From Takakia lepidozioides (taxonomy: Eukaryota; Plantae; Bryophyta), in NCBI GenBank assembly GCA_030704615.1, contig CM060732.1, positions 28,210,001-28,274,000 of the forward strand: a stretch of DNA of 64,000 nt, written 5' to 3'. A program made the translations under genes and the position numbers. Each line of letters starts with the position of its first letter. The stretch's first letter is position 1. This document shows positions 13,145 through 41,002 of this stretch, one piece after another. The notes beneath the pieces were generated by a model. That model saw nothing but the letters and a program-made list of their open reading frames with translations, did no database searches and was not told the DNA's origin.

Positions 13145-13459
13145 GACGACGGGCAGAACTAGTGGGATAGGGGCAGACAGGGACTCAAGACCTAGAATCG
13201 GGGCATGAAGGTGTGCACGATGGTGGGATAACCGCGATCGCAAGGTGTGGGTTTTTCTCAATGTACAGTGACGAGCGGAGCTGGTGGGATAGGGGGCAGA
13301 CAGGGACTTAAGACCTAGAATTGAGGCATGAAGGCATGCACGATGGTGGGACAACCGTGATCGCAAGGTGTGGCTTTTCTAAATGTACAATGACGAGCGG
13401 AGCTGGTGGGATAGGGGATAGACAGGGACTCAAGTCCTAGAATCGGGGCATGAAGGCAT
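13145..13459 (+). repeat. ~122-bp tandem repeat (continues at 24397-24580)
   Basis: Unit GACGAGCGGAGCTGGTGGGATAGGGGGCAGACAGGGACT...GCATGAAGGCATGCACGATGGTGGGACAACCG..ATCGCAAGGTGTGGC is repeated, and is split exactly at GCAT by the retroelement. Confidence 0.85.
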
Positions 13460-13907
13460 TGTCGTGCGCATACATATCGCTACACAACTACATCGCTGTC
13501 CAAAACCACACAATACATGTGCACACCACACACTAGTATACCACTAGTCTACCACTAGTCCAGCCACTAGTCCAACCACTAGGCTACAACTAGTCAGTCA
13601 CTAGGCTGCCACTACGCTGCCCACTATGGCAGTCACTAGTCCACACAATCGCCCCCCTAGCTGGTGCTTAGGTCCCTCTAAGTCCAGGTAGCCACAAGAT
13701 GTGATAGTGACCATAGCCTCACTAAGTCATCCACCACTATCCCTACTACACTCAAACTCGATAGATCAAGAGGCCGGGTGCAAGAGTTGCCCCATCGTTA
13801 GTCGCCGTCTTGCAACCTGTGAACTTGAGCTTGGGATCTCATGTATTGACTCCTATGAGCTTGGCCTCCCATGTCTTGTTAGCTGCCTCCAGTCATGTCC
13901 ACTGCCA

Positions 13908-16097
13908 CTATCCCAAGCAGTGTGGACACAACCAATCTCCGTCAGGAACCTTCTCAAGAGGTGGTGTCAAGCATCCCATATGCCAACCCCTTGAGCACCG
14001 ATCACACACCAGCATGGTGGCTGCCCCTTTGGCGGACCCACAGAGCATGCACCTCAAACCTGCAGGTACCACTGCCAAGTTTGGGTCAACTCTGCCATCG
14101 ACATTGGGAAGGTGACATGGCGCACAATTACGCACATGGTCTTTCCAAGTCATGCCATCCCGACCCTCTAAGATCAGGACCCCTGAGGGCAACACCTCTC
14201 GAACCCTCAGAATAACACGCCCTGCAGTAACATCCAGAGTCGTAGGAGCAGTCTGCTGCAAATAAACATAGTCACCAGGGCTAAACCTCCGAACCCCAGG
14301 ACGATATCCTCCACCACGTATAGTGGCATACCTCAATGTATCACGGTGTTGTGCAATGGCAAGGTTCTCAAAAGCCATGGGCATGACTTTCTTGAACAAC
14401 TCTGCACGCTGATCACATGCACGTACCCACACGTCCGGATCGTCAAGGTTAAGGACTTGAGCAGTGTCCCTACGAATGGCTGCAGGCAAATCCGGCTCTC
14501 GGCCAAAGAGAAGGAAATATGGTGAGAAGGAGGCAAGTGATGCTTGTTTGCTAAACCTGTAGCCCATGGCTAACCAAGGAACCTGAAGATCCCAATCTCC
14601 TAGGTGTCCCTTCTGCAAGCCATACTTGCGCAAACCCCTCTTCACCGTCTGAACAACTCTCTCTGCTAAGCCATCGGCCTCAGGATGATCCCGAGAAGTG
14701 GTGCGGTGGTCTATCAAGGCTTTATCACACAAAGCCTGAAACTCCCCCAAGAACTCTCTCCCTTGGTCCGTGAGTACCTCAGCTGGAGCACCAAATCGGC
14801 TAAGCACACGATCCAAGAATGCATACGCAGCCCCCTCACTAGCCTTGTCAGGCAATGGAACCAACTCAATCCACTTGGAGAAGTGCTCCACCATCACCAA
14901 CACATATCTGTGGTGGCGCATAGTCAGTGGCAACGGTCCTGCGAAGTCAAGACTCCACCTGTAGCCCAATCCCATGATAGGTAAAGGATGCAACTGTGGT
15001 GTAGGGGCGTTGAATGAAGCACGTACCCTGTCACACACCATGCACCTAGCCACAAACTGTTGCACCTCTGTATGCATACCACGCCACCAATACTGCCCCT
15101 GCAGTAAACTGTGAGTGCGTCGCACTCCAAAATGCCCCAACTCCTCATGGGCATGCCGCACTAACCGTGCACGCTGTGTGAGGTGAGGCACAATCCTCAC
15201 CCGACCATCCTCCCACACTCGAAGTAGGTGTATCCCCTCCCACTTGAACCTCTTGGCTCGTTGCAGGATCCGATCCCTCTCCCTGGCAGTCACAATGGCT
15301 GCCGTGTCTCCCGTGCGGAGGTAGTCCAACACAGCCGAATCCTCATGTATATCTCTGGCACCACCTAGCTCATCACTAGCCTCAGGGTCCTCAGACACTC
15401 CGTCTACAGTCATCCCTGTTGTAGGTCCAATCTGACCTCCCGATGCCAAGATACACAAAAATGCAGATGCGTGCCATCCCGGCACCATCTCCTCGTCCGT
15501 CTCACCATGCCACCGAGCTCCAGTGTCATCCTGCTGGCTCATGCATGGATTGCGACTCAATCCATCCGCATCCCGATTGACCAAACCCGGTCGATGCACA
15601 ACCTGAAAGTCATACTCCTGGAGTATCAGTGCCCACCGTGCAAGCTTCCCTGTAAGCTTGTCTGACTCCATCAACCACTTGAGTGGCTGGTGATCCGTGA
15701 CAAGGGTGAAAAGATTGCCGTATAGATAGCACCTGAAGTGTGTCACGGCCCACACTGCAGCTAAGCACTCTCCCTCATATGAGCTGTACTTAGCCTCTGC
15801 AGCGTTGTTCGAGCGGCTAGCGTAAGCCACTACGAACTCTCTTCCCTCATCATCCACCTGTGTGAGCACCGCTCCAAGCCCCAGCATGCTCCAATCCGTA
15901 TGCAGCTGAAAGGGACGCCCCCTGATAGGTCGTCTCAAGATAGGCGCCGAGGTCAACCTTGCCTTGAGCTCTTGAAAAGCTCGTTCCTGCTCATCTTCCC
16001 ACTGCCACTCCTGGTCCACCTTGGTCAGCTTGGTTAGAGCCTTTGCAATGGTACTAAATCCCTTGACAAACCGTCTATAATAGTTTGCCAACCCCAT
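13908..16097 (-). CDS. RNase H - integrase - C-terminal PHD finger
   Basis: RNase H LHTDWS...YSSYEGECLA...TDHQPL. Integrase HHCC (HEELGH...CMVC) and D-D-E (SLDFAG / LTDQG / LAERVV). C4HC3 PHD CMLC...CDRC...WHMGC...WLCPHC at 13917-14051. Confidence 0.96.
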   Translation of the reverse strand: MGLANYYRRFVKGFSTIAKALTKLTKVDQEWQWEDEQERAFQELKARLTSAPILRRPIRGRPFQLHTDWSMLGLGAVLTQVDDEGREFVVAYASRSNNAAEAKYSSYEGECLAAVWAVTHFRCYLYGNLFTLVTDHQPLKWLMESDKLTGKLARWALILQEYDFQVVHRPGLVNRDADGLSRNPCMSQQDDTGARWHGETDEEMVPGWHASAFLCILASGGQIGPTTGMTVDGVSEDPEASDELGGARDIHEDSAVLDYLRTGDTAAIVTARERDRILQRAKRFKWEGIHLLRVWEDGRVRIVPHLTQRARLVRHAHEELGHFGVRRTHSLLQGQYWWRGMHTEVQQFVARCMVCDRVRASFNAPTPQLHPLPIMGLGYRWSLDFAGPLPLTMRHHRYVLVMVEHFSKWIELVPLPDKASEGAAYAFLDRVLSRFGAPAEVLTDQGREFLGEFQALCDKALIDHRTTSRDHPEADGLAERVVQTVKRGLRKYGLQKGHLGDWDLQVPWLAMGYRFSKQASLASFSPYFLLFGREPDLPAAIRRDTAQVLNLDDPDVWVRACDQRAELFKKVMPMAFENLAIAQHRDTLRYATIRGGGYRPGVRRFSPGDYVYLQQTAPTTLDVTAGRVILRVREVLPSGVLILEGRDGMTWKDHVRNCAPCHLPNVDGRVDPNLAVVPAGLRCMLCGSAKGAATMLVCDRCSRGWHMGCLTPPLEKVPDGDWLCPHCLG

Positions 16098-17042
16098 GAA
16101 AGCTCAAACTCGGCTCACATCCGTGGGGCGTGGAATTTGTGCAATGGCCTCTACCTTAGTCTGCTGTACCCCCAATCCTCCAGGATATATCATGTGACCC
16201 AGATACTCAATCTGGTTGTGGAAAAACTTGCACTTCCCCGGATGCAACTTCAATCCGTGCGCTCTCAAGCGCTCCAATACCACCTGAAGGTGTCTCTCAT
16301 GCTCCTCCATCGTAACACTAAAGATGATGATGTCATCTATGTAGCACCGAGCAAAGTCCACCCCTGCTAGAATCCTATCCATGACTCTCTGAAACTCTGC
16401 AGGAGCATTCTTAAGCCCAAATGGTAAGAACCGCCACTGATATAGGCAATCCTTGCCGTGCTCATTGATCCCCCAGAATGCCGTCTTCTGCTTGTCCGCC
16501 TCCTTGATTGGCAACTGGTGATATCCGGATCGTAAATCCAAAGTGCTAAAGGCCTTAGCATGCCCGATGGCATCAAAGATCTCCTCTGGTGTTGGCATGG
16601 CATACTTATCGGACTTGGTCTGACGATTTACAGGCCGGTAATCACCGCACATACGTCTCTCCGTCCAATTGCCATAGACATCCTTCTTGGCTGGCATCAC
16701 TGTGGCTGAAGCATACTCTCCACCAGAGAGCTCCACCAAACCTGCCTCCCAGAGATCTTGAGTCCTCATCTGAATCAAAGACCTCTCCATGTCACTGTAT
16801 CTATAGGGTCTCCGAAAGATTGGCGTGTCAGTGGCCAACTCAATACGGATCTCTTGACCCTTCAGTGCTCCCAAGTCCTTCAAACTGAAGGCAAAGCAAT
16901 TCCTGTAAGCCCTCAGGAACCGCCGTATACGTCGTCTCTCTCCTCCGGTGACAATGGGTCCAATGTCAGGCTCCCAATTGTCCTCCGTAACTACAACCTT
17001 AAGTCCAGTGGGCTTAGAGGTAGAGGACGCGTCCCGTGGTTG
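16098..17042 (-). CDS. Reverse transcriptase
   Basis: RMCGDYRPVN, FSTLDLRSGYHQ, LPFGLKNAP, YIDDIIIF, LGH. In frame with the post-DNMT linker (TAG at 17043-17045) and with RNase H (TGA at 16104-16106). Confidence 0.97.
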
Positions 17043-17339
17043 CTATGCTGCAACCTCTTGAGCAGTACTCCCTACCTGCTCAGTCAATGACAAGGCATCA
17101 TCCTGCCCCATCATCTCATCCTTGAGGACCTCCTCAACTCGAGAAGAATCCCCAACCTCATCCATCACAGCCGCCTTGGCTGCCAACTCCCTCTGATCCT
17201 CAAGCACTTCCCACGTGTGCCATGGATGCATGCACCCCGTGGTCCTCATATGCTCGCCCCCACTCACTGCCTGTACCGTCTCGGTAGGCAGAGAGACCAT
17301 TAAGGGAAGTGTATTCCGCACTCTGCGTTGCTCAGCTAG

Positions 17340-18313
17340 AGCCAAGCTGATAATCCAGGTCAAGCAATTGAGATCCATTGCTTGCCCCAACACTTGACGA
17401 CGTGATGCCTCAAAAGAGACGACACCGCCGTGGTACCAGTGGTAAAACCCATTGCCCGCTCACGCTCGTCAGCATTAGGCTCCACTAACTGCTGCAACTG
17501 AGCATCCCACAGGAGGCCAGGTCCACTATCCCGGAAAGCATGCGATCCTGGGAAGCTGAGCAGTGTAGGTAATGCTGCTCGTGGTTGACCCACCTTGTTG
17601 ACCACTGCCAAAGGCAAACGGTCATCGTGTCTCACATGCTGAGACTGCCTCCCTGTGTCCAGAATGTTATCCACTGTGAGATGTGCTGGCCGCTGCACCC
17701 CATCAAATGCACGCTTGAGCAGTGCGGGTGGCATCAAGTTAGTCCACCATAGCCGTGGACGATGAGCTCGTGACCCCACTGTAGCTGCATCTAGCAACAC
17801 TGCTGACCCAAGCCACGACCGGACTTGATGCACACTGGCCATCACCCTGGCCCGAGAATCGCCCATCAGTGGCACATTCTCCAAGATGTATGCTGGAGAT
17901 ACAGCTTGATGAAGCTGCAAGTGGCGCAAAACCCGCACCATCTCCCAAAACAGACCCGACCTCGAGTCTCGCAATCCATTGCCATGCCCGGCTGATGAAT
18001 GCCCTTGGCAGGGCCAACCTGCCACTACCAGATCAATGGAGCCAACCCGCTCCAAATCCTGCGCCCCCAGCAACGAAATGTCTGCTGGCAAGGCCTGCTG
18101 ATATCCACGAATTGCAGACACCGACAACAACTCAGGGTACCGCTGCACCAACTGAGCAACATGGCGAAGTGAAACGCGTCGTGCAGTCTCATCCCTCTCC
18201 ACATACAGGTAACGCCGAACTCGTACACCTGCCTGTAACACAGCAGCCAATCCGGTGCTGATCCCGCCAAACAAGTCCAGAAGACAAATGTCTTCATCCG
18301 GATACTGCCACAC
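17340..18313 (-). CDS. DNMT3-like C5-cytosine DNA methyltransferase domain within the Gypsy polyprotein
   Basis: Motif I LLDLFGGISTG, motif II YVERD, motif IV DLVVAGWPCQG (catalytic PC intact), motif VI YILENV, motif VIII RAHRPRLWWTNL, motif IX ERERAMGF. Motif X RRQVLGQAMD follows a 1-bp frameshift at ~17413. Confidence 0.93.
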
Positions 18314-18599
18314 AATAGGTGTGGTGTCAATGGAGACAACTGAGGTGGTCCTGGTGCAATCCCCGCACTCTCCTCCTCTCCTGACGGTACAAAAGCCTCC
18401 ACCCAGGCTTGTTGCACCCGTCGATCAGCATCCCGCTGCAAATCCTTGCTCGTGCCCCACAATGGAGTCTGAGCAACCATGGTAGGCAACTCCGCCATAC
18501 CATACATGTCATCCTGCTCTCCCGGAGGTGGTACATCCTCTGAATGAGCATTGCCCTCAAGCAACTCTCTAGGCCAACTCACTGCCGCTGTGAATGCTG

Positions 18600-19100
18600 C
18601 TAGTGTCGGCATCTTGCCTCGCTGGGCAACCGCAACTCCTCCTATGAACGTCACAGGGAGCTGCACACGCCGGCCCTCCCCTGACTGCCATGCAGGCCTA
18701 TAGGAAGCTGACTCCTCCCAAAAATCCAGGGTGAAGCCCATGGGGTACAACACTGCCCCACCAACCAGGACATCGTATGAGACTGCGTCTGTGACAATGG
18801 CCTTGGCTCGCATCACTGAGCCATCTGTAGGGTGATCCGGCCGTAGTCTGATAGCCAACTCACGCCGTGTCATGCCCCGAGCCTGCTCCGATCCTCCCAA
18901 GACGTCTGTATCTGGAAAGGACAAGGCTCCATATCCGCCTCCGTGAGGCCCAAGCCTGCAATAGCAGCTCTGCCCAGCATCAATGGCTGAGCTCCCGAGT
19001 CCAACAAGACCCGCAGTGGCCGGTACCTCTTGCCTGCCGGTCCACTCAAACAGAAAATGCCATCCTGGTTGTCTAACATGACAACTCCAGGTGTCACCAT
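18600..19100 (-). CDS. Retroviral-like aspartic protease domain
   Basis: RVLLDSGAQPLMLG catalytic motif and downstream YDVLVGGAVL (ILG.D-like) motif. A 1-bp frameshift lies near 18900. Confidence 0.8.
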
Positions 19101-19297
19101 GGCGCGCTCAATGGCTGGCCTAGCTGGCAGCTCCATCAACCTGGCAGCTGCAGCTTGCCATGGCGCCGCCGTGGCAGTCTTGACCCTCAAATCCGAGGAT
19201 CCCTCCGGCACTACACCTCCTACTATCTCCGCAGAAGATGAAGTAACCTCCCCACTCTCACAGAGTGTAGCTGCCAGCCTGAACACCTCAGCTGGTC

Positions 19298-21232
19298 TTA
19301 CCCCGGCGTCGCAATCATGGTAGCCGAGAACAATGGAGCCTGGCACACAGATGTGGCCGCTCCTAGCAGCACACTAGCTGCCGTAGCCTTGGCAACACTA
19401 GGTAGTGGTGCTACCCGTGTAGCTCTCCCCAATGGCATAGTAACCTCCGCCTCGGTAACAGTCGGGCGAGAACTAGGTGCCATGGATGGCGTCGACACTG
19501 TCTCCGCCAATGTGAATGACTGAGGAAGCCTAGCCTGACGGCTTGCCTCCCCACGCTGTGGATCCAACTCCACCTCTGCACCTCGTGGCTCAGGAACTCG
19601 TGCTGCTCCTCGAGTCACGGCTGCAGCAGACTCCACCTGCACTAGTGGTAGTGCTGCTCCACACATGAATCCCATGCCTCCCATATCTCCTCCCTCAGGA
19701 GCAGGAGGTGGACCATCCGGCCTTAGAGCCGGTACCACCTGAGCTGTAGCCATGGCAGCGAGCCTCTGCTCTAGCTGCTGAAGCCGGTTGGCCATGCCTT
19801 GGTCAACACCCTGACCTTCGCGTCCTTGGCCACGTTGAGCTTGCCCTTGGCCTCGTGGCTGGCCACCTCGTCCCCTCTGGGCTGCTCCACCTCGCCCCCG
19901 GCCACCATTGTTCTCTTGGAACTGGCCTGGGCGCAACTCAGGATGCAAACCATAACACTGAGCCTCTCCATGCCCGTGTTTGCCACAATGCCCACACTGT
20001 AACTGTGCAGGCTGTGCATGTGCCGGCCCTTTGCCTCCCTCTGGACAATCCTTCTTGACATGGGGTCCTCCACATGTCCAGCACACCACATCCGCCCGTT
20101 GTTGGCCAGCAAATGAAGGGAGAGACCCCTGCATCTGAGGTCCTCTCTGCCCTTCCCTGAGCTTCACCTGAGCCCCCTTGTTGCCTTGAGCACGTTGAGG
20201 TAGTGGTTGGCTAGGAGCACCACTACCCCGTGGTGTCTCCTTAGCAAATCCCACCATGACCACTCGTTCCTCCACCATGTTGAGCTCTATCCGCTCTGCC
20301 AGCAAAACACATTTGCTAAGGTGGGTTGGGCCGCTTGTAGGAGAGTTGCATCCCGCACCCTTCTCCTCAGCTCCTTGTCCAATATCCCATACCAGAATTG
20401 GACTGCCTGAGCTTCCGTAACCCCTTGGGTTACATTTATCAAGCGCCTCATACGAGTGAAAGCCTCCCTCAAGCTCTCGGTCGGCTTCCGTTGGAACTCT
20501 TGCAAGCTCCGCAACTTCTCTGTCCTCACCCCTTGGTAGTTCCCTCTCAACTCTTCGAAGAACTCCACGACAGGGTTGAAGGCAGGCACGGGTGCTAGTG
20601 CTGGTGCGGTAGTGGCTTGGGTGGACGTCGTAGCTACTGTACCACCAGTCCCACTGCTGCTTGCTGAAGCTGCCGGTGCAGCGGCGGGTGTAGCCACTGC
20701 CCTCGTGGCTCTAGTGCCCTAGTGATGGAGACATAATCGGGTGACCAGTACATCCTCCACTCCTCTATCTCAACCTCATGCCCCGCCTGAACTCATGGTA
20801 ATCATCCATAGGCGGCCCCTCAAGGTGCTGAAACAGCCCTTCCATGCCATGAAAGGCGTAAATAGTTGTGGATTGCGCATTTGCTGCAAATCACACCAAC
20901 TATCAAACTCTTGGATAAAATCATCCAACTCGATGGTGCCCACCGCCCCAGAGTACCTTCGTGGCCCCTTGGTAGCTCCATACATCTCCTCCATGTGTCC
21001 CACAACAATGGCAAAGAAACAACTTGCACCGCCGGTATGAGTCCTTCTGATTCACAATCCGAATCAGAACCTTCCGTAGAAGACACAGGAGGTGAAGGTG
21101 GCCTAAACCCACACACTCGCTCGTGTACCCACTAGTATCGCTAGTGCTCGAACCGGCACTATCCCCAGCAACTAGTGGCACCTCCGTGTTGACACTCAAC
21201 CGGTCATGAAATGTCCCTAACCCCCTCTCCAC
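19298..21232 (-). CDS. Gag (frameshifted pieces) with two CCHC zinc knuckles
   Basis: RRYSGAVGTIELDDFIQEFDSWC...; FQRKPTESLREAFTRMRRL (Retrotrans_gag-like Q..ES...F.R); CWTCGGPHVKKDC and CGHCGKHGHGEAQC. Confidence 0.8.
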
Positions 21233-21439
21233 AAGGTAACCGGGTAGAGAAACCTGTTGCGGGCTTATGGTTTGGAATACTAAGTTCCTAACATAGCCTA
21301 CACCTGAACTTGCATGACCATGGGAATATCATGAAGATACTCCTCAAACCGCCCTCCACGAGCTTCAAAATTCGGCCTTCCAGACCACATGCCCAGTCCT
21401 TAGTCCACCAGTGCCTCTACGAGTCAGCACAGGCCATCC

Positions 21440-22700
21440 ACAGGTCAACACGGGCCACCACAGACCTGCACAGGCCCACACAGCTCACTGGTCACAGCCG
21501 TCACAGTCCCACAGGCCACTGGGCACAGCCTGTCACAGCCCCTCACAGCTCGTCACAGCCTCAAAGGCCTCAGGCACAGCCTGTCACAGCCCAAAGGCCT
21601 CAGGCGCGGCCTGTCATAGCCCTCACAGCCCTTAGGCACGGCCTGTCACAGCCCTCACAGCCCGTCACAGCCTCAAAGGCCATGGGCACAGCCTGTCACA
21701 GCCCGTCACAGCCCCACAGGCCTCAGGACACAGCCTGTCACAGCCCCGCACAGCCCGTCACAGCCCCAAAGGCCACTGGGCACAGCCTGTCACAGCCGGT
21801 CACAGCCTGACACAGCCCGTCACAGCCCCACAGGGCACAGGGCACAGCCTGTCACAGCCTGTCACAGCCCATCACAGCCCATCACAGCCTCAAAGGCCAT
21901 GGGCACGGCTGTCACAGCCCATCACAGCCCATCACAGCCTCAAAGGCCATGGGCACGGCCTGTCACAGCCCCTCACAGCCCGTCACGGCCTCAAAGGCCT
22001 CAGGCACGGCCTGTCACAGCCCCTCACAGCCCCAAAGGCCATGGGCACGGCCTGTCACAGCCCCTCACAGCCCCTCATAGCCTCAAAGGCCTCAGGCACG
22101 GCCTGTCACAGCCCCTCACAGCCCCAAAGGCCATGGGCACAGCCTGTCACAGCCCATCACAGCCCCAAAGGCCACTGGGCACAGCCCGTCACAGCCCACA
22201 GGGCACAGGGCACAGCCTGTCACAGCCTGTCACAGCCTGTCACAGCCTGTCACAGCCCATCACAGCCCATCACAGCCTCAAAGGCCTCAGGCACGGCCTG
22301 TCACAGCCCCTCACAGCCCATCACAACCCCAAAGGCCATGGGCACAGTCTGTCACAGCCCGTCACAGCCCCACAGGCCTCAGGGCACAGCCTGTCACAGC
22401 CTGACACAGCCCGTCACAGCCCCACAGGGCACAGGGCACAGCCTGTCACAGCCCATCACAGCCTGTCACAGCTTGCCACAGCCCGTCACAGCCCGTCACA
22501 GCCCCAAAGGCCACTGGGCACAGCCTGGCACAGCCTGACACAGCCCGTCACAGCCCCACAAGGCACAGGGCACAGCCTGTCACAGCCCATCACAGCCTGT
22601 CACAGCTTGCCACAGCCCATCACAGCCCGTCACAGCCCGTCACAGCTCGCCACAGCCTGACACAGCCCGTCACAGCCCGTCACAGCTTGCCACACATGGC
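21440..22700. repeat. ~10-bp TCACAGCC(T/C)(G/A) minisatellite in the Gypsy 5' leader
   Basis: About 1.2 kb of TCACAGCCTG/TCACAGCCCG/GCACAGCC units with higher-order AAAGGCC spacers. Confidence 0.95.
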
Positions 22701-24559
22701 CGCTCTGGCAGTTTAGCCATTTCTCCAAGGGGTTTAGCCACGCCAAGCTAGGGTTTGTGTCTCTTGGACTCTAGGCTTCTTTCCACCGAGCTATGGTGGC
22801 CGTGAGGAAATCAGCAAGGTATCCTTGCTCTTTCGGCTCCCACACACCACCATAGTAGCCCTAAGCCATGAGGTGGTTGCCACAAACCAAGCCTTCTTTC
22901 TCACTTAGCCTACCCAAACACGCCACTAAACTCAATGGCAAACAACCAAGCCCTGCTGGTTCCCAGCCCTTGTGAGCACTCATTCAAGCACTCTCCTTGC
23001 CATAGCATCTGTCTTAGAGCCTATTCCAGCCCTCTACACCTGTTGCTTCAAGAGTTGCGCTCCCTTCAAGCTTGAAGTTGAAACCCCAACTCACATAGGC
23101 CCTACAAGTGCTTTTCTTTCACTCCAAGTGGAAACCAGCCCTAGACCTTCCGTTCTAGCTCTCTAAGGCTTGAAAACAAGAGCCTCAATGGGCTGAAGGC
23201 ATGCTCCACACATGCCCCACTCTCACCATAAGAGAATCAGCTCCTTTGCTTCATTTCTTGCACCCACAAACCTGATAATACAAGCTTCAGCAGGCTGAAA
23301 GCATGCTCTACATGCCCTACAGGGAAACCAGCCCCTTCCTTCCTTTCTTGCACTCCCACACCTAAAAGTGCAAGCCTTCACCAGGCTGATAGCATGCTCC
23401 ACACATACATTGCCCTCACATAAGGGAAGTCAGCCCTTCCCTCTTCCTTGCTTGCCCTCCAAGCTTGAAGATGGAAGCTTCAATGAGCTGAATACATGCT
23501 CCACACATGCAACCTCTTCACACAAGAGATATCAGCCCCCTATCTTGGCTCCTTGGCTCCTTGATGCTCTCTATGACAAGACTAAGCACTCCATAGCTTT
23601 TGCCAAGCTCCTGAAACCCTAAGGCTTACATTTCCAGCCACAAGACACTTCTCTTGTGGTGCAAGAGCTCTTCTTCCAAGCTCTGTAACCCTAGGTGCAC
23701 ATTCCATGGCCTTGCCGCACCTCTTAGCTCTTGTTCCAGCCCTGCTCTCGCCATGACAAGAGCCCTCTCAATGCTGAAGCTCGAGATTGAAACCCAATCT
23801 CACCATACTCCACAAAGTGCACTGATTTGCCCCAAGCCAAATCAGCCCTTTCGCTTGGTCCTGCAGTATGGTGCTTTCATCTCTGAAGCTGAAGATCGAA
23901 TGCCAAGGTTTACCACCTCGTAACCCACATCGCCTCCGCTTCTAACAACCAAGAGTTCCACGGTGCTCCTTGCATAACAACTTGGTTTCTCTCATTCTCA
24001 AGCAAAAACCACAAGTGCTACAACTAACTCGTATCTAGCACTCATAGATACGAGCTCATCTTTCTCGAGTGATAAAGAAGAAGAATACAAGCACAAGCTC
24101 ATGCGAGCTCACAAAGCTGAAGCATAAACTCATGCATATATAACCTCATCACTCAAATACAAGTCAAGCCAAGTGCACCCCACGCCATGGGGAATCCACA
24201 CTACGGCGCCATAGCTAGGCGCGGTGAGGCTCAACTCGAGAAAGATGAGCCTCCCGCGCTTGCCGTGAAGATAACCACTCCAGGGCCTAAATCTGCCTTG
24301 ACCCCTGGATTGACACTTGGGCCAATCCCAAATGTCAATATGTAAAAGCTAGCTATTTCCTAGCTAGTTTCACACTAGTGGTAAAATAACTTGACAGCAT
24401 GCACAATGGTGGGACAACCACGATCGCAAGGTGTGGCTTTTTCTCAATGTACAATGACGAGTGGAGCTGGTGGGATAGGGGGCAGACATGGACTCAAGCC
24501 CTAGAATCGGGGCATGAAGGCGTGCACGATGGTGGGACAATCGCGATCGCAAGGTGTGG

Positions 24560-26920
24560 CTTTTTCTCTATGTATGATGTGAAGAAGTTTGTCCATCTTG
24601 CAAATGCGGGCTCTTGGCTCTTGTTAGACGTACCATGATTTTGTATTCTTCCTGATGTTTACAAGGTTCTTGGGAGAGTCAGGTTGGTCTTAGCAGGTCG
24701 TGTTTCAATCTCCGCTCGCTCAGCTGCACCGTGGTGGTTCTCATGGACCAATCTGCCATTACCAGACTACAGACACAAGTAGTACACACAAGAGGTCCGT
24801 ATGGGTTCATGGGGAGTCAAATCCTCCATGGGTCATGACACAAGGTTGAGGACAATGTGGTAAGGGCACCTTCTTCTTCGACCTATTTCAGAGCTTGCAT
24901 GAGTTTTTTTACCGATCCTTACCGATGGTGGGACAATCGCAATCGCAAGGTGTGGCTTTTCCTTAATGTAGGATGTGAAGAAGTTTGTCCATCCTACAAA
25001 TGTGGGCTTTTGGCTCCTGTTAGTACCATGATTTGGTATTCTTCCTGATGTTTACAAGGTTCTTGGGAGAATCATCTTGGTCTTAGCAGCCCGCTGATTC
25101 ATTTCCTGATTCAACCTATTTCAGCCTGTTTTGCCCTCTTATCAGACTCGGGCCTGATATGCATATTGAATTTTGTTAAGTTAGCTCGTTGGTGCAAGAA
25201 AGAGAGTCAGCTTGGTCTTAGCAGGCTGTGAGGGCACCTTCTTCTTCAACCTATTTCAGCATGTTTTGCCCTCTTATCAGACTCAGGCCTGATATGCATA
25301 TTGAATTCTGTTAAGTTAGCTCGTTGGTGCAAGAGAGAGAGTCAGCTTGGTCTTAGTAGGCCGTGATGGCACCTTCTTCTTCAACCTATTTCAGCCTGTT
25401 TTGCCCTCTTATCAGACTCGGGCCTGATATGCATATTGTAATCTGGAAAGAGGTCGACATGTTTGCAAAATGAAGGCCTTGCTTGGTGCCTGCAGAATCC
25501 ATTGCAATGTGGAGATGGCTAAACGTGCGGCATGAAGGTACCTTCTTCAACACATTTCACACTGTTTTTCCCTATTACCACAGTCCCTAAATTTTCATTT
25601 TGAATTCTGCAAGTTAGCTCGTTCGTGATGTGAGGTTGCATGAGTTTTATACCGATCTTTCACGATGGTGGGACAACCGCAATCACCAAGTGTGGCTTTT
25701 CTTAATGTACGATGTGAAGACGTTCGTCCATCTTGCAAAGGTGGGCTCTTGACTCCTGGAGTACCATGATTTGGTATTCTTCCTAATGTTTACAAGGTTC
25801 TTAGGAGAGTCAGCTTGCAGGTCTTAGCAGGTCGTGTTTCAATCTCTCCTTGCTCAGTTGCACCGTGGTGGTTCTCACAGACCAATCCGACATTACCTGA
25901 CTACAGACAAACAACACACACAAGAGGTCATTTTTGGGTTGATGGTCGGTCAAATCCTCCATGGGTCAAGGACAATATTGTAAGGGCACATTTCAGCCTG
26001 TTTTGCCCTCTCATCAGACTTGGCCCTGAGATGCATGTTGAATTCTGCATGGGTGATAAGTAGGGTTGGGTGTTTGCTGGAACAATTATAGGCTGTCATT
26101 GTCAGCTGCTAGCAGCAAGGGAAGGATGTATGCATGATTTGTGCAGAGCTTGGATAGCTGAGGAGCAGGGGTAGAGTCTAGTGGGTCCAGATTCATCCAA
26201 GAGGGCGGGACTTCAAGCTCACGATTACCTATAATTCTCTGTGGATCAATAGCTGCAAGAAACCTGCATGGATAGATGGTCAACTGGAAGCCGCAGTAAT
26301 AGCGGCACAATTGATAAAATCGGGCACTACTAATGAAGGCACCTTCTTCAACACATTTTCACCATGTTTTTCCCTCTTATCATAATTGGCCCTAAATTTT
26401 CATGTTGAATTATGCAAGTTAGCTGGTTGAGTGAACCTTTGATAGTTTGGAGTGACTTTGACATGGTACTGCCAATGTGACAACAGGGAAGTATCCAGAA
26501 ACAGGTTACAGCTGAGACGAGGAGAAGCTGTGGAATGAATACTTTTCTAACCCCAGTCCATGGTGGGACAATCGAGGCAAAAAGGTGAATGCCTGTTGGA
26601 TTATAGAGAGTAGCAGATGCAATTGACCACAGTGATAAGTTGAGTTGGGTGTTTCCTAGAACAAATCTAGGCTGTCATTGTTAGGTGCTAACAGTGAGGC
26701 AAGGATGTATGCATGATTTGTGCAGCGGCATGGATAGCTGAAGGAGCAGGGATAGAGTCTGGGTCCAGATTCATCCAAGAGGGCCGGACTTCAAGCTCCA
26801 GATTACCTATGATTCCATGTAGATCAATAGCTACAAGAAATCTGGTGCATGGGTAGATGGTCAACTAAAGGTAGCAACTGCAACGGCACAGTTGATAAAA
26901 TCAGGCACCTCAACCATGAC
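24560..26920. repeat. Mosaic of locally duplicated 100-350-bp blocks
   Basis: Repeated blocks include GCACCTTCTTC..TATTTCAGCCTGTTTTGCCCTCTTATCAGACTC and CAGCTGCACCGTGGTGGTTCTC, plus the duplicated 26060-26330 / 26635-26910 segment. The same blocks recur at 34940-35000 and 35680-36100. Confidence 0.75.
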
Positions 26921-26924
26921 CACA

Positions 26925-27220
26925 GTTTTTGAAAGAGGATCAAGAGAGGTGGTTGAACGAGATGTGGTGTTTTGGAGTGCCATGATTGCAAGGTATGTGC
27001 AGCATGGGTATGGGATTAAGGCTTTGGAAACCTAGGAGCAAATGATGTGGGAAGGGATGAAGCAAGACCAGGTCATATTCATTTGTGTTTGTAATATGCA
27101 TATGGGAGCCTAACAGCCCTGGGAAGGGGCAAAGAGGTTCATGGTGACATTATCAAAGCTGAAATTGTACCAGATATCATTCTGAACATTCCCCTAGTGT
27201 ACATCTACATCAAATGTGAG
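26925..27220 (+). pseudogene. PLS-class PPR gene fragment
   Basis: ERDVVFWSAMIARYVQHGYGIKALET*EQMMWEGMKQDQVIFI, then (frameshift) GSLTALGRGKEVHGDIIKAEIVPDIILNIPLVYIYIKC: S/P-L-S motif consensus with a stop and a frameshift. Confidence 0.8.
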
Positions 27221-30200
27221 CCTGGCAGCCCTGACCAAAGAAGAACATGAAGAGGGCTTACAATTTCATTCGCCCAGGCATAGACATTGCTGGCAATGAG
27301 AAGAAGGCAGGAAAGCAGTTCAGTGTTCCTAGCATGCATGCGGAGACACCGTATAGAAGTTAGGCTTAGACTTTTATCATGGCTGGATTTTGTTGACAAT
27401 GTTCCAGCACTTAACTCTCTGGGATTCTATTTTATTTTGTGGAGCTTGAATCTCCAATGGTACTTCTTTCACTACACTAGTGGTATGTGTTCCTCTAGTC
27501 ATGTTCATAATCACTTGCACATCACTGTAATAGTGGTATAATTTAAAACTGTGGGAGTAGCCAAATGCACACAATTGCCTATATTACCACTTGTATAGTG
27601 GTATAAGTAGTCACATTCTATTACTGTATTAGTGGTATGAATTCCTCCAGTGGTATTCCTAATCACTTATATACCACTCTGTTACTAATCACTCCAATCC
27701 ATAGTTCCCACTCAGAGAGACACCATGGATGACTCAAACAGCTTACACACCACTCTATGGGTAATCATTCCAATGACCTGCTGAGAGACCTCTATGGGTA
27801 ATCATTCCAATGACCTGCTGAGAGACGTCATCCACTGACATAACCACTCTGTGAGTGCTATTGTATATTATCAGTTTTCATAGCATGACTCTATGAGTCA
27901 ACAAAGTGGCTTAGTGTCTTTTACCACTCAAAATGAGTGGTTAACAGAGTGGTTATTCCGCATTTTTCTTCTAGTGTGAGCTTCCTGTACCTGTATGCGT
28001 GGAGAGAGAGTGATGGTCGGCATATTCAGTCATATAGTCTTGCATTGCATTTTCTCTGTTTCAGGTTGAACAGATTAGGGAAGTGGAATGGCGGTACCGC
28101 CAATCACTTTTTTTGAGACCATACTGTAGATTCATGTAGAGTATCGATTGCAAAGTACATTCCAGACAGACAAGAAATAGTGATTGTTTGTGACGATCAT
28201 CACAATGGAGTCTCTCTGACTTATCTGCACTCAATTTCTGCCCTAAACTAGAGCAAGTGTCGGTGCCGCCAATCACTAAGACATATATTTCATTGCACCA
28301 AACCGATCCAGTAGGTCCTTCAAATGTAATGTTTTTTTTATTGTTGTTAACGCCGTTCGCTAATGCTCAGAACCTCTCTGTAGATACAAATGGGAAAAGC
28401 ACATTAGTGTCTCCTGAGATCACAGATACCTAGGATGATTGCTGGAAGGATGTTAATGAGGAGTTCTAGCTGGGCCTCATGATGGGAAGAAACACCCAGC
28501 AATTCTACAACCACATGTTCTACGTCTGGGACGGCAACCACCGATTGCTGGCATGGATGGGATACATTCAGAAACATCATGCGAAAGACAAAGACAAGTA
28601 TGTTGTTGTAGAGGCAATGGTTTTGGATCCTGGAAACGACATCACTAGGCTTTCTTCTGCTATGCACGACGTGAACAAGTAAGTCATCCTACAGACTCCA
28701 TTACCTCTCCAATGTCTTGTTAATCCCACCAAAAAACGATGTTTACCAATGTATTGTTTTCAATCTTTTTGCAGATCGACAGAGAAATCGCATGTGACAA
28801 CAAGCTTGGTCTACACACTGTTTCGAATTCAGAGGATTGGTCTGATGAAGCTGGATGATTTTCGCACAGTACTCCACCCCGATATAATCAAGAAGTGCGA
28901 AACAGGAAGAACTGCAAGCACTTGGTATTCTTTGACTCGAGAGACGTTTCTGGAGTACATGTATGCGGTAAGGCCGAGCCTGTACTCACTTGTCTTTCTG
29001 AATACATGTTTGTATTCCGTTTTGTACTCATCCCTATTTGATTTGCAGCAAGAACTGGCAGAGGCAGCTGAGAAGGGGAAATCCAAATACTACCGCACTA
29101 CAACAGAGAACTTAGGACATCAAAGGGTGTGGAAGCAACAATAAAGAAGGAGTATGAAATCCGCAGAACCAAACTGATGTCCGCCTTCTCAAAGCAGCTT
29201 AGAATAGTAGATCCTGGCCTTGGAGATGAGTTCCTTCTGCAGATCAAATCTCACTATAACAAGCATGTGCACCCGGAGATGCAGCAGGAGAAATTGCACC
29301 GGCTGGCCATCTCCATGGTCGACCCCCAAACCAAAATAAGATGGCTGGAGATTTGGAACTCAGAGCAGACAGTGAAGGACTTGAATCAAGGGGATGCTTC
29401 CGCATGAGAGCGCGTGAGCGTGAGTGGGCTCACGCCACGTCATCAGTTATTGCTACGTTGGCTGACCGGTCTGACGCCACGTCAGCCGACCTCGCCAGCG
29501 CGCCCGACGCCACATCACGTCATGCCACATCATTGTCATAGGCATGGCCCTATAACCGCGGACCGAACATGCAAATGGGGGCCTATAGCCGCGGATTGCG
29601 CATTTGGCAGACATGGAACCATGTGTGGGCGACGAGGCGAGGTGCAGAAGAGAGTTTAGGGTTTGTTAGTGAATGTTGCAGAATGATAGAGACTGAAATG
29701 GTTGTGGATGTTAATGTCTAGGTCATCAGTCTACAATGATGATGAAATTTGCATTTCAGTCACTAGAACTATCCCTTGAAACTTGTGCAATATCATCGAC
29801 ATAAACCCGAGCTCCGAGGTGCATGTTGTGCTTTCGAGCACATGGGGGAGATAACATGAAACTCTGTTGACGAGCAATGGCCTTCGCGTAGTCGGGTAGG
29901 ATGAATGAACGTGGAGGGCTGCATCACAAGTCACTGTGAATAAAAGAGACGTCGACCAAAGGAATAGCTTCCAATATCCTGCCATCCAAAGAACCACAAT
30001 TGCATTAGCCACCATTAATGGGAAAGGGGGGGCCATTTTCACAGGAGAAATCGGATGCTTACAAAAACACAACTTACTCACATGCGAAATCGTCGTCCAA
30101 GACTTTGTCGTCCCCTTCGTTGATTTCCACATGCACTATACCCTACTGTTGTTGGGCGGCGGGCGCCGGCGCTGATGCTTCCAAGTTATGGAGGAGGTCA

Positions 30201-31699: not shown

Positions 31700-34500
31700 G
31701 AGGACATGGGCATCAAGATTCCCAGTCATCAGAGGTAATGAGCACATTAGGCCTATTTTCTTTCCTAATAATGATTGGTGTGACACAATGGTTGTACTCA
31801 CTGTATCAGGCCTATTCTCATCCTTATTGAATCCAAACAGCCAGAGGGACAAGATGCCCCTAAGTGTACAGAACCTGAACGTCCTGAATCTGAAGGATTT
31901 GGTACTCAAGAGTTTACACAAGACGAGCAAAATCTACACATGGGGTAACTGTCCCCCCTTTGCAGAACGGTTGGGCGTCCAGGAGCAATCCCAAGCTACC
32001 TAGACGACAAACAATTCACATGCAAAGGGCTGGCTTGCGGCTGGCCACTTTCAACTTCTCAGGGCTTACTAACCAAAGGAAACAACTCGAAGTGGGACAA
32101 GTCCTTCGGACTAATGATATTCATATCTGTGCTGGGCAAGAAACATGGGAAACTTCGGATAAACTGGTTGGAGATGTCAATGGTTATAAATGGGCAGGTA
32201 GGATGTGTACTCTCAAGGCAGCCTCTGCCAAACGCGGTCAAAAAGGGGTTGGATTCTTTATCCGTGATTTCTTGTTTGATAATTGTGAAATTATCAACAA
32301 GGGTTTGAGGTACGAACATAGTATCTGGCTAAAACTGAATCTGAAGGGCGGCATGAGTACGAAGGACCTCTTTGTGGGTTGTGTTTACATGCCCACAGAG
32401 GGGACCCTTAGTGCTGACGCAGACAAAGCCTTCGAAGATGTAAAGCTGGACTGTGCTTCGTTCCTTGCCAAAGGTCAGGTAGTGCTATTGGGTGACTTCA
32501 ATGCCCGGGTGGGCAAAGGGCTCCATCAGGACGATATCATTGGGCCTTTTGGTGAGGACGAGCCCTCTATAAAGAGTGCTGCAATTTGAAAACCAACAGA
32601 GAATTGTGGGCGAGGCACTATCAGCTCCGGAAAGATATCAATCAGCTTGTTAGGTCTCAGAAGAAATTATACTGGGATAAGTTATACAGTGAAATAAACT
32701 CAAACCACCATGGTGGTAATGACAAGAAATTATGGTTGGCCCTTCAACGTTTGTACAAGCCTAAAAACGGTCAGCAAGTACAAGCGCTGAAGACTACTAA
32801 AGGTGCAGTGGTGACTTCATCGGTTGACATTGTCAAAACCTTTGAAAATCACTACAGTATCCTTGGCAGAACTTCTAGGTCTAACAGTGAGGGGTCTTCT
32901 GCTGAATGGAGGGACACAGTTGGAAAAATTGTTCCTATGATTCAAAACAGCCCTGATGAACTGGAGTATATTTTAATGGCTTATAACGCTCCCATTAGTT
33001 CTTCTGAGATTGTGGAAGCAATTGAACATTTAAATGGATATAAAGCTGGTGGACCTGATGGTATTGTCAACGAGCTTATCAAGCACGGTGGCGATCCCAT
33101 GATAGAGGCCCTAGTTCTCCTCTTTAACCTTATCTGGAAGACTGAAATGATCCCCTTTCGCTGGCGACAGGGGGTCATTGTCAGTCTATACAAGAAGGGT
33201 GACAGAGAAGAACCGGGGAACTACCGTGGCATCACACTCAGGAGTTGATTAATTGCGCAAAGAGATACTTTGATCTTTGGGGGCTAGAGGCTAATGTTAG
33301 CAAATGTGCAGTGGTAGCATTCAACGACAGAGGAGAGGGAGGAAGTGATCTTAAGTGGTAGTGGGGTAGCCAAGAGATCCCGGTCCTCCCTTCCTACACT
33401 TACCTGGGCGTTGAGTTTTCCTCCAATTGTTATTGGGATGCACATATCCGGAAAGTTGTTCGAACTGGCAAGGGCAAAGCTCTGGGGCTCACTAATTTTT
33501 TCCACTGCAGAGGGGTCATCTCTGAGGTTAAGAAAACCATGCTTTGTCGCGTTATTAGACCTGCCTTGGAGTACGGATCTGCTATATGGGTTGATAACTC
33601 CAAGCAGGCTAAGTCTCTAGAATCCATTCAAGTGGGGGTGCTTAAGGAGTGTATGTCAGCATGCTCCAAAACAGCCAATGTGGCTGTTCGGGGTGAGTTT
33701 GGCATTCCATCCTTAAGCTCCCGACGAGATGAATTCAAGGTCAGATGGTGGGGTCAGCTGCAACATATGCCCAACACCAGATATCCTAAGTTGATTGACT
33801 CTATATCTTGGAAACATGACCGCCCTGTCAAACAGGCTAAGTCCTGGCAGAAGAGAGTAGAAAAGATTCTCAAGGATCTGGACCTGGATCCGCAAGTCTT
33901 GACCCTGCTGGATAAATCTGCCTTAGAGGTTGTAGTGTCTGAGGCCATGTCTGTTGCCATGAGATTGTCTGATGAAAATGAAGTTAGGCAGAGAACTTCC
34001 CTAAACTTGTTTCCAGTCAGTGACATGGGGGTGGACATCTTGGATGACCTCAAGGGTCTACCCACTCTCGGCACTAGAACTCAGGGCAAGAAGCCTACCT
34101 TTGAACAGCAAACAGAAGCAGAGAGGAAAGGGAGAGTGCAATTGTCCGTTGTGTGGGCAATCTGAAGACAATATTCATTTTCTGATACGCTGTCCGGGTT
34201 CTCTCACCAAAGAGAGGCTCTCTTCAATTCTATCAAGGGAATTGTGCCTGTACCCCTGTTTACCAACTTTGAAAGTCTCGAGGCTGAGCCAAAAGCCCAG
34301 GCCCTCCTGAGGCCTAGTTTTTGGGCAAATCACACACAGCAGATTGATGCTTGTGTGAAGGGTTTTCTAGAGGATATCTGGAAAACCCGGATTAATTCCT
34401 TATACGATGGTAAGTCTTACTACCAACGTCAGCCCTGTTCCTTTTGTTCCCACTGAAACTGGGCACGGGGTCAATGGCCACAAGGCTACGGCAAACAACG
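31700..34500 (+). mobile_element. Internally deleted APE-type LINE (RTE/RTEX-like by inference)
   Basis: APE: LRLATFNF...AGQETW...CVYMP...LGDFNARVG (31960-32560). RT N-part KAGGPDGI...LYKKGDREEPGNYRGITL (32586-33248). C-part IRPALEYGSAIW and CPLCGQSEDNIHFLIRC. The YADD core is missing. Confidence 0.85.
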
Positions 34501-34989: not shown

Positions 34990-35665
34990 AGACACGGTCT
35001 TGCCAACTGAATGATGCAGGTTCACTTGGGAGAGTGCACTCCCCCTTTCCTCTCTGCTTCTGTTTCATGTTCAAAGGTAGGCTTCCTTCCCTGAGTTTAA
35101 ATTTCAGTCTAGTGCCAAGAGTGGGTGGACCCTTGAGGTCATCCAAGATGTCATCCCCCATGTTACTGACTAGAAACAAGTTCAGGGAAGTTTTATGCCT
35201 AACTTCATTTTCATCAGACAATCTCATGGCAATAGACATGGCTTTGGACACTACAGCCTCTAAGTCTGATTTATCCAGCAGGGTCAAGACTTGCGGATCC
35301 AGGTCCAGGTCCTTGAGAATCTCTTCTACTCTGGCCTTGGGAAAACACCTTTTGATCTCAGTCCAAAAAGTGGTCAGAGGTACCAATATCAGTTCTGTCG
35401 ATCAACACATTGGCACACTGGGGGAACAAATTTTTGTCCATTATGATATAGTCCACAATGGAACGTTCCCCAGTTTGGGATTTCTCACGAGTCCACTGCA
35501 CTTGGTCACCTCTTGTCTTGTTAATCAAGGTCAAAAGCTGAAGCTCTTCCAGATAGTTAATTAACCGTCTGCCATTAGAATTCAGCTCGTCCTCACCAGA
35601 AGACCCAATGATATCGTCCTGATGGAGCCCTTTGCCCACTTGGGCATTGAAGTCACCCTACAATA
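34990..35665 (-). mobile_element. Second, inverted fragment of the same LINE
   Basis: APE end (GKGLHQDDIIG...SIVDYI...TSDHF) is fused directly to a C-terminal segment nearly identical to 33850-34140. Confidence 0.85.
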
Positions 35666-39800: not shown

Positions 39801-40054
39801 GTCTTCGTATGGCCTGCCATCGTCCTCCTCCTCAACAACCACCAGTTCTTGCTCAATCCTTCGTTCTCTACCTGAGCAACACCTTACCTTTTCTTCGTCT
39901 GCACTCAAAGTGATAGGTTTCGCATGTAAAAAAAACTTGCCAGAAATTGCGTGCTTCAACGCACGCAATTTTCTACCATCTAAAATTTACTCATTTCTTT
40001 GCCTATTTCATCACACAAAAAAGAAAACAAAAAACAAAAAAAACAATTGTTATT

Positions 40055-40510
40055 TATAATTGTCCTTAAGACTCCTTAGGACAGTCCTAAGGAGTCCTAA
40101 GAGGAGGAAAAAGTAAATAAATAAATTAAAAAAATTTATAATTGCCCTTAGGACTCTTTAAGATAGTCCTAAGGAGTCCTAAGAGGAAGAATATATATAT
40201 ATATATATATGTGTTATTTATAATTGCCCTTAAAACTCCTTAGGACTGTCCTAAAAAGTCATATTTGAAAAAAACAAATTGTAATTGCTCTCAGGACTCC
40301 CTAGGACAGTCCTAAGGAGTCCTGAAAAAAACACAAAAAAACAAAAAAACAATTTATAATTGCCCTTAGGACTCCTTAGGACAGTACTAAGGAGTCCTAA
40401 GAGGAAGAAAATAATAATAATAATAATAATTGCCCTTAGGACTCCTTAGGAGAGTGCTAAGGAGTCATAAAGGAGGATATATATATATAATTGCCCCTAA
40501 AACTTTTTAG
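40055..40510. repeat. Tandem hairpin repeats AGGACTCCTTAGGACAGTCCTAAGGAGTCCT
   Basis: About six copies of a ~31-bp palindrome preceded by TAATTGCCCTT and separated by A/AT-rich spacers. Confidence 0.85.
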
Positions 40511-40740
40511 GGAAATAAAAAAATCAAGTGCTACAATAAATGTATCGACTATGTACTGCTTATTAGTATCTACCAACAAAATTTGTAGGTTGTCACTATT
40601 TATTACAATTAAAACAAAATTTTGTTCTCGATAAATGTTCATACAGTTATTTACAATGCACCGACATCTATTTTTGAATAAACTTTCATGAGTTAGTACT
40701 TGAAACTTTTATTTCTATCACATCTGCTATAACATCCAAA

Positions 40741-41002
40741 GTAGTTCGATTAGAATTCGACAGCTGAGAGAGGTGAGTGTGAGAGAACCCCCAGAAATGG
40801 CGTGCGTTGACGCACGCAATTTCTGGGGGTTCTCTCACACTCACCTTTATGCCTATTCAGGGCTTCTGTCGCTGTCAACACAACACAGTGGAGAGAAGGT
40901 GAGTGTGAGAGAACCTCCAGAAATTGCGTGCGTCAACGCACGCAATTTCTGGAGGTTCTCTCACACTCACCTTCTCTCAGCTGTCGAACTCTAATCGAAC
41001 TA
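40741..41002. repeat. Nested inverted repeat (foldback with two internal ~75-85-bp hairpins)
   Basis: Outer arms GTAGTTCGATTAGAATTCGACAGCTGAGAG / CTCTCAGCTGTCGAACTCTAATCGAACTAC. Internal hairpins are centred on GCGTGCGTTGACGCACGC (~40808) and GCGTGCGTCAACGCACGC (~40934). Confidence 0.9.

Follow-up and report, generated by a model that had tools for sequence, protein, structure and literature searches.

The range of retroelements that carry a DNA methyltransferase (DNMT) has been given as streptophytes and dinoflagellates (PMC12344493), and a 'Gypsy-DNMT3' of streptophytes is named in a preprint (bioRxiv 10.64898/2026.05.21.726589). The closest described system is KnitGypsy-Dnmt3 of the alga Klebsormidium nitens, and self-methylation by such elements is a proposal of de Mendoza et al. 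(PMC5890265). PHD fingers on retrotransposons are also known, including that of Gypsy-7a_cRei (PMC9940879, PMC6673714, bioRxiv 10.1101/2021.11.30.470311). Why retrotransposons carry their own silencing enzyme has been a question since 2018, and the hosts known earlier are hard to work with. Here we describe a window, that is, a stretch of 64,000 nucleotides from Takakia lepidozioides (assembly GCA_030704615.1, contig CM060732.1, positions 28,210,001 to 28,274,000), which contains a dead element from a Ty3/Gypsy family of high copy number. On its minus strand the order is gag, protease (PR), DNMT, reverse transcriptase (RT), RNase H (RH), integrase (INT) and PHD finger, with a conserved in-frame stop codon, probably read through, between DNMT and RT.

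A methyltransferase ahead of a conserved stop

The first open reading frame (ORF1, Gag-PR-DNMT) ends at an in-frame TAG (17043-17045), which is followed by CAA CCA and then, in the same frame, by the RT. A sequence-only reading of this DNA had placed DNMT and RT in the same polyprotein; the stop parts them. At the stop positions, no alternative letter reached 1% in four sequencing runs when a 71-bp query was compared with run contigs (583 contigs in run X2, 502 in X1, 4 in X13 from organism C and 1 in X15 from organism D; three organisms and three samples). Positions 17048 and 17049, 3-4 bases 5' of the stop, vary in about 20% and 10% of X2 depth. The variant listing apparently covers the central part of the 71 bp, the last hexamer bases lying outside it.

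Beyond the window family, 37 close loci form four further, divergent families. The junction is visible in 33 of them (26 TAG, 6 TAA and 1 TAC), the other four being cut or deleted; because many of the 37 are redundant copies, which tempers these figures, the independent count of the stop is five families. The background frequency of TAR followed by CARYY is 173/18,950 (0.9%). The distance between the first base of the DNMT's motif X segment and the stop is 321, 366, 414 or 465 nt depending on the family, all in frame (320 in the decayed locus L067), and the linkers in between cannot be aligned across the five families. Locus L032 has 1,369 open codons, then TAG CAG TTA, then 1,047 open codons. 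The hexamer after the stop is CAA CCA in the window and L033 and CAG TTA in L031 and L032. Gene models from Marchantia and Calypogeia terminate 93-99 aa past motif X. The TAG is thus a family state and not the decay of one copy.

An in-frame UAG followed by CAR YYA, as found here, is the type I readthrough signal of tobacco mosaic virus (TMV), about 10% efficient in vivo (PMC2754532), and candidate readthrough sites occur among rice gypsy elements (PMC2754532, PMC11166343). No stable RNA structure was detected 3' of the stop (z -0.03 to -1.6). By analogy, the conserved stop is probably read through, at a predicted efficiency of about 5-10%, a figure taken from TMV.

The features of the element are as follows, in window coordinates.

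13460..24396, minus strand: whole element, 10,937 bp, of the form A-coding-B (A and B being terminal segments), with TGTCA..CGACA ends and no pair of long terminal repeats (LTRs)
13456..13459, unstranded: left copy of the 4-bp target site duplication, GCAT on the plus strand
24397..24400, unstranded: right copy of the target site duplication, GCAT on the plus strand
13148..13459, unstranded: 123-bp tandem host repeat split by the insertion, resuming at 24397-24574
21480..22700, unstranded: 10-bp tandem array in the 3.3-kb 5' leader, with repeats of about 100 bp next to it at 23130-23540
19300..21050, minus strand: gag, frame-broken (Retrotrans_gag E 5e-4, below the cut-off)
20060-20083 and 19970-19996, minus strand: two zinc-knuckle-like motifs in gag
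18870..19070, minus strand: aspartic protease with an internal frame change (LLDSGA at 18990-19007; Asp_protease_2 at just E 0.03)
17367..18313, minus strand: DNMT3-like C5 methyltransferase, from Pfam, structure matches and motifs
18251-18274, minus strand: DNMT motif I
18005-18022, minus strand: DNMT motif IV (PC)
17873-17884, minus strand: DNMT motif VI (ENV)
17744-17767, minus strand: DNMT motif VIII
17447-17467, minus strand: DNMT motif IX
17367-17387, minus strand: DNMT motif X, past the frameshift near 17412 and so out of frame in the window copy
17046..17366, minus strand: poorly conserved linker closing ORF1
17037..17045, minus strand: conserved in-frame TAG, then CAA CCA (CAR YYA readthrough context, motif per PMC2754532)
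16107..16979, minus strand: reverse transcriptase (YIDD at 16332-16343), with a premature TGA directly after it at 16104-16106
15612..16001, minus strand: RNase H, from Pfam
14682..15176, minus strand: integrase HHCC zinc finger and DDE core, from Pfam and motifs
13917..14051, minus strand: C4HC3 PHD finger at the integrase C-terminus, from Pfam, with the stop of ORF2 at 13908
13649..13662, minus strand: polypurine tract (PPT)
13460..13648, minus strand: terminal segment B, from the PPT to CACGACA

Pfam searches recovered RNase H, the integrase zinc finger, rve and PHD (E 1.1e-10) in 13908-16103, RVT_1 in 16104-17039 and DNA_methylase (E 3.6e-13) in 17360-18421; RVT_1, RNase H, rve, PHD and DNA_methylase all scored above their cut-offs. 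The sequence-only reading had rightly located a DNMT between protease and RT and a C4HC3 PHD finger where chromoviruses carry a chromodomain. Its description of the copy as near-intact does not hold: aligned with Marchantia and Sphagnum proteins, ORF1 has at least five frame changes (near 20850-20300, 19300, 18900-19070, 18327 and 17412), and the premature TGA adds to them. Other copies in four sequencing runs differ at the site near 17412, and Asp_protease_2 is stronger in locus L032 (E 2e-4). The Gag-PR-RT-RH-INT order and the TG..CA ends with a target duplication within the 4-6 bp range are those of Ty3/Gypsy elements (Metaviridae), while two full direct LTRs are absent, no long repeat being found between the ends of the window element. 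The element is a Gypsy-type Pol with non-canonical ends. Its family is large, 7,854 run contigs aligning on 661 bp in run X2, a number that is not a copy count.

The motif set of C5 DNA methyltransferases is complete in the DNMT (I, IV Cys, VI Glu, VIII Arg, IX and X, at 18274-17367). An affinity to DNMT3, also proposed earlier, is borne out by searches against solved structures, in which the window domain as a single sequence matched DNMT3A best (E 1e-9; top matches DNMT3A/B), and a profile of 18 unbroken domains gave E 2e-20 to DNMT3A, 2e-10 to DRM, 2e-7 to HhaI and 6e-5 to DNMT2. The modelled domain of the relative L003 (predicted local distance difference test, pLDDT, 88.6) had DNMT3A/B/C in all Foldseek rows listed. 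The catalytic Cys, Glu and RxR are retained in 156/173 near-full domains, drawn from 366 proteins, and are invariant in all 18 aligned unbroken domains; EC replaces PC in about half of the 173. The ratio of nonsynonymous to synonymous substitution rates (dN/dS) of the DNMT between families is 0.13 for L031/L032 (RT 0.17) and 0.07 for window/L013, which is near saturation (RT 0.07), with five further pairs saturated at synonymous sites. Neither of two outcomes that the sequence-only reading had named against itself, a one-off DNMT or a neutral dN/dS, was found: the domain is family-wide, being present in dozens of loci, and these ratios indicate purifying selection on it between families. Eleven loci in viral contigs with distant, partial DNMT matches were not used, nor was a codon-position count from 40 of 92 variant rows, a small and selective sample.

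Relatives that carry the DNMT come, where named, from Marchantia, Calypogeia, Sphagnum, Closterium, Haematococcus, Chromochloris and Hariotina, as well as Volvox, where the DNMT is dead; the integrase-PHD part has further relatives in Riccia (integrase only), in Klebsormidium nitens and in a transcript from Coleochaete (Pol only). The anticipated extension into land plants is real and goes beyond one genome, the domain being present already in annotated proteins of Marchantia, Calypogeia, Sphagnum, Closterium and chlorophytes. Of 295 matches in a metagenome scan, the best 80 were analysed. Three layouts occur among them: DNMT before RT with the stop, DNMT before RT without it, and RT-RH-DNMT-INT-PHD, the last, with the DNMT between RNase H and integrase, in the named chlorophytes. 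In trees of 26 rows selected from 53 (RT) and 58 (DNMT), the DNMT tracks the RT. The RT-RH-DNMT-INT-PHD layout is one clade (ultrafast bootstrap, UFboot, 100 and 99 in the RT and DNMT trees, respectively) and the stop-bearing clade is exclusive (97 and 100). The trees would fit one old capture of the DNMT and a later move within the element.

Several observations on these relatives stand apart. A second family with DNMT before RT, no stop and the same split repeats is represented by L044, L049, L051, L054, L060, L063 and L070, and a Calypogeia integrase groups with it. In a distant clade (P0352, P0361-P0363) a Gag-to-DNMT protein of 1,261-1,279 aa terminates right at the DNMT end, so that, as seen from proteins, a second DNMT-on-Gag arrangement may exist. 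L055:55-10881 and L050:1865-11851 are single frames of 3,609 and 3,329 codons with RT, DNMT, PHD and long extensions past the PHD. Some members with the DNMT after the RT have a G-patch domain (P0049, P0117, P0303 and P0307), and two members of this plant lineage appear under bacterial metagenome-assembled genome names (P0194 and P0291), likely through binning contamination. In bryophyte genomes, gene models of the lineage may also lead to DNMT numbers that are too high.

Integration: split ends and PHD finger

The element starts with TGTCA (24396) and ends with CACGACA (13460), with GCAT on both sides, inside the 123-bp host repeat. Seven relatives (L015, L021, L051, L054, L060, L063 and L070) show the layout A-coding-PPT-B-A-B, where the window copy has A once and B once. 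The B|A junction is a palindrome, GACA-NN-TGTC, with NN being GC, AC or GT; in 689 kb it occurs 12 times, always 3' of the PHD and across all three layouts, where about two occurrences would be expected. The 4-bp duplication is exact in six of eight elements with both ends in view, with three of four bases in one and none in the other. At L047:7060-7100, PPT and junction are separated by a segment B of just about 11 nt, reminiscent of the 8-bp LTR difference in Gypsy-7a_cRei. No tRNA primer site was recognised by eye after segment A in the relatives, and no tRNA gene is present in the window.

Two accounts of these ends appear possible to us. Firstly, the true LTR may be B-A, with the integrase cutting the internal palindrome, probably on circular cDNA; we advance this tentatively. 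The cut would be made with a 2-nt stagger, and IS3-type circle junctions offer a parallel. Secondly, and put forward just as cautiously, A-coding-B may be the product of B1-B2 recombination after insertion of A-coding-B-A-B, the ends deriving from linear cDNA and template repair as proposed for split-repeat DIRS elements, with no circle cut. In favour of the second account, B1 and B2 repeat in direct orientation at a spacing of about 300-340 bp, and the first B is followed by A in 10/17 loci and by host flank in 7/17. A symmetric cut of two-LTR circles also predicts the form A-B-A-coding-B, yet none of 20 5' ends (18 distinct flanks) is preceded by B, and this missing mirror form argues against the simple symmetric version of a circle cut. 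On the other side, the spacer within the internal B|A junction has a constant length of 2 nt, in agreement with a single staggered cut yielding both processed ends, and in L070 B2 is truncated at its 5' end while the target duplication is intact, as a junction formed by end joining would show. The window's own form may be a later B1-B2 recombination product under either account of how the ends arose; lacking terminal redundancy, this copy presumably could not be copied. The combination of split ends, a DDE integrase and a target duplication suggests a replication route of LTR elements that LTR-finding programs would miss, which may explain the lineage's absence from the plant LTR classifications searched.

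The choice of target may depend on the PHD finger. It is a true C4HC3 finger whose nearest structures are CHD4, PHF12, KDM5A/B and ATXR5, and it is the sole reader at the integrase C-terminus, where the chromodomain of chromoviruses is absent. In readers of H3K4me3 (ING/BPTF type), the residue two places ahead of the zinc His is a cage Trp; in the 127 PHDs that a pattern search recovered from 258 proteins, that position holds Trp in none, Gly in 124 and Ala in three. Cys-Asp is retained in 119/127, and an acid directly precedes the first Cys in 57/127, though not in the window copy. Lack of the cage Trp, Cys-Asp and an acid before the first Cys are marks of readers of the unmodified H3 end. 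On balance we favour the prediction that this PHD binds the H3 N-terminus and not H3K4me3, biasing insertion away from active promoters.

Enzyme dose, proposed self-methylation and competing readings

Retroelements require Gag about 20-fold above Pol (PMC2194720). In the mechanism that we propose, most ribosomes would stop after Gag-PR-DNMT, and a few would read through into RT, RNase H and integrase-PHD. The protease would release the DNMT, which, packaged at Gag level, would methylate new cDNA, so that copies would arrive marked as silent repeats, and the PHD would steer their insertion away from active promoters. We consider the case evenly balanced for a Gag-linked DNMT behind a leaky TAG-CAR-YYA stop that is made at Gag level and methylates its own cDNA in the particle. 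The further prediction, that de novo methylation of cDNA lets new copies arrive marked and tolerated, we hold with slightly less than even confidence. An analogy drawn in the sequence-only reading to the ADD-MTase logic of DNMT3 fails, because in this clade the stop comes between DNMT and PHD, and most DNMT molecules would therefore be made without a PHD.

A number of results weigh against this mechanism. The chlorophyte layout and the second moss-like family carry the DNMT in Pol without a stop, so a Gag-level dose of the enzyme is not required. The largest family (29 loci) has CAA CCC or CCT after the stop, five of six consensus bases, and the two DNMT-before-RT groups are jointly monophyletic just weakly (UFboot 50 and 79). 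The DNMT dN/dS rises to 0.87 between the decayed sisters L003 and L013 and to 0.32 between L054 and L063, and values of 0.60 and 3.7 in the linker amount to weak or no constraint.

Further such results also favour an alternative that we think unlikely but worth weighing, in which the DNMT, instead of methylating the element's cDNA, is retained chiefly as a particle component that binds DNA or nucleosomes, or has host chromatin as its target in trans. Five Volvox reticuliferus proteins (P0120, P0221, P0224, P0228 and P0229) retain, before the integrase, a DNMT-like domain that has lost the catalytic Cys and ENV. Coding CpG shows no depletion that would mark self-methylation, with an observed/expected ratio of 0.53 equal to that of the rest of the window (0.53), and a structural role would go well with expression at Gag level. 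In yeast, no methylation was obtained from the isolated KnitGypsy-Dnmt3 domain, a result its authors call 'inconclusive', whereas Dnmt3 domains of Symbiodinium DIRS elements methylate CG de novo (PMC5890265). Retention of Cys, Glu and RxR in the great majority of near-full domains across green plants, and without exception in the aligned unbroken ones, also speaks against this alternative.

Pol itself might be made differently, from a separate or spliced RNA or by re-initiation at an AUG just past the stop (compare the Ogre intron and the Tca2 junction), the CAR YYA being incidental. At the in-frame stop of Tca2, the junction drove downstream expression far over a readthrough level (PMC2194720), and an ATG lies three to five codons past the stop in the 29-locus family (in most copies two codons past the hexamer start), in L031 and in L067. 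However, the spacer of Ogre is a non-coding region of about 270 bp (PMC6317226), and here there is one single stop. The frame is maintained on both sides of it in five families with differing linker lengths, and the hexamer is conserved where the flanking codons are not. No in-frame ATG follows the stop before codon 85 in the window or before codon 117 in L032, leaving the window family and L032 with none ahead of the RT core. We judge this alternative rather improbable.

A reading of the DNMT as a nested insertion or a host gene captured just once, with the TAG a product of decay, has in its favour the decayed window copy and the commonness of CAG-to-TAG changes in methylated plant repeats, and is refuted by the invariant stop, its recurrence across families, the placing of the DNMT at the same point in dozens of loci and proteins, and the congruence of RT and DNMT trees.

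Readthrough of a stop behind a Gag-linked DNMT, if correct, makes that stop a handle on dose and predicts abundant Gag-linked enzyme. The family occurs in Marchantia, a genetic model, with many copies annotated as ordinary genes; Mp4g09160 and Mp5g06330 are examples of its Gag-PR-DNMT gene models. At its most speculative, and in our view doubtfully as a whole, the evidence could be drawn together as a Gypsy lineage that would span the green plants, date back to the chlorophyte-streptophyte split and cut a circular-cDNA palindrome by a DDE integrase; one clade would have moved DNMT3 onto Gag behind a leaky stop, loading particles so that pre-methylated copies enter PHD-chosen chromatin. If true, this would mean that LTR elements have a new route of integration, along with dose-controlled self-methylation, testable in Marchantia.

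The rest of the window holds an aldehyde oxidase/xanthine dehydrogenase-like host gene in exons (57390-61780, plus strand), whose named relatives are from Ginkgo (50%), Adiantum (47%), Selaginella (46%) and Ceratopteris (45%), pointing to a land-plant host. There are two long interspersed nuclear element (LINE)-like elements, at 31894-34162 (plus; endonuclease 31894-32586) and 53000-55685 (minus; RT 54025-55275), a NIF-like phosphatase ORF of 379 aa (51322-52458, plus) and a decayed pentatricopeptide repeat (PPR)-like fragment recognised by eye (26823-27250, plus). Tandem and inverted repeat arrays occupy 24397-26900, 40025-41193 (foldback at 40718-41026 included) and 62009-62780; a 225-bp inverted pair lies at 33854-34078 and 35108-35332. 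Long ORFs without a Pfam match at 39291-39986 (minus) and 42676-45400 (plus) are possibly parts of a DNA transposon.

Comparison with described elements

KnitGypsy-Dnmt3 shares with the present lineage the Gypsy domain set, a non-rearranged Dnmt3-type DNMT, purifying selection and, according to a figure legend, DIRS-like split repeats as in the relatives described here (de Mendoza et al. 2018, PMC5890265). The link to the charophyte Gypsy-Dnmt3 kind drawn in the sequence-only reading is upheld by these common traits. In KnitGypsy-Dnmt3, however, the DNMT shares one ORF with RT and RNase H (PMC5890265), an arrangement also found in the sister layouts, while in the stop-bearing clade the DNMT closes the Gag-PR frame before TAG-CAR-YY. 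Since a conserved stop parts DNMT from RT, the window element is a variant and not a plain member of KnitGypsy-Dnmt3. The latter was reported from one alga (PMC5890265), and the range here takes in liverworts, Sphagnum, Closterium, Coleochaete (Pol only) and chlorophytes. The term 'PHD' occurs 0 times in the main text and readable supplements of PMC5890265, the main supplementary PDF, outside that check, being a place where it or more hosts could appear. Integrases of K. nitens with a PHD fall inside the lineage and outside the stop-bearing clade, integrase pieces alone being compared; no K. nitens DNMT was among the 58 DNMT proteins or the 120 listed of 139, and the likeness to the KnitGypsy DNMT clade is by description.

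Gypsy-7a_cRei and REM1 of Chlamydomonas are likewise green-lineage Gypsy elements with a PHD finger and an intergenic insertion bias, and the sub-parted LTRs in the legend for Gypsy-7a_cRei, the left one without its last 8 bp, would fit a very short B (PMC9940879). Compared by description, that element has no DNMT among its listed domains (PMC9940879). The tyrosine recombinase (YR) elements PAT, TOC and Ngaro have the same A1-B1-A2-B2 split direct repeats but use a tyrosine recombinase (PMC4157794), unlike the DDE integrase, TG..CA ends and 4-bp duplication found here. Chromoviruses also have a histone reader at the integrase end, a chromodomain instead of a PHD. EpiLTRs similarly unite a methyltransferase and a reader in one element, but their DNMTs are DNMT4-related with a DAM domain (bioRxiv 10.64898/2026.05.21.726589), in contrast to the DNMT3-like enzyme of this lineage. 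Troyka (PMC12440569) was considered and is unrelated.

Nothing on the lineage in land plants or chlorophytes, its stop or its junction was found in the open-access literature, subscription papers, Repbase and theses being outside the search. With TMV type I readthrough and the candidates in rice gypsy elements and SIRE1 (PMC2754532, PMC11166343, PMC2194720), the element shares the same stop and hexamer and the lack of 3' structure; it differs from them in that the stop follows Gag-PR-DNMT, so that an enzyme sits on the abundant side. The core idea is already published, and what is added here is a wide range, a conserved readthrough-type stop and the anatomy of the junction.

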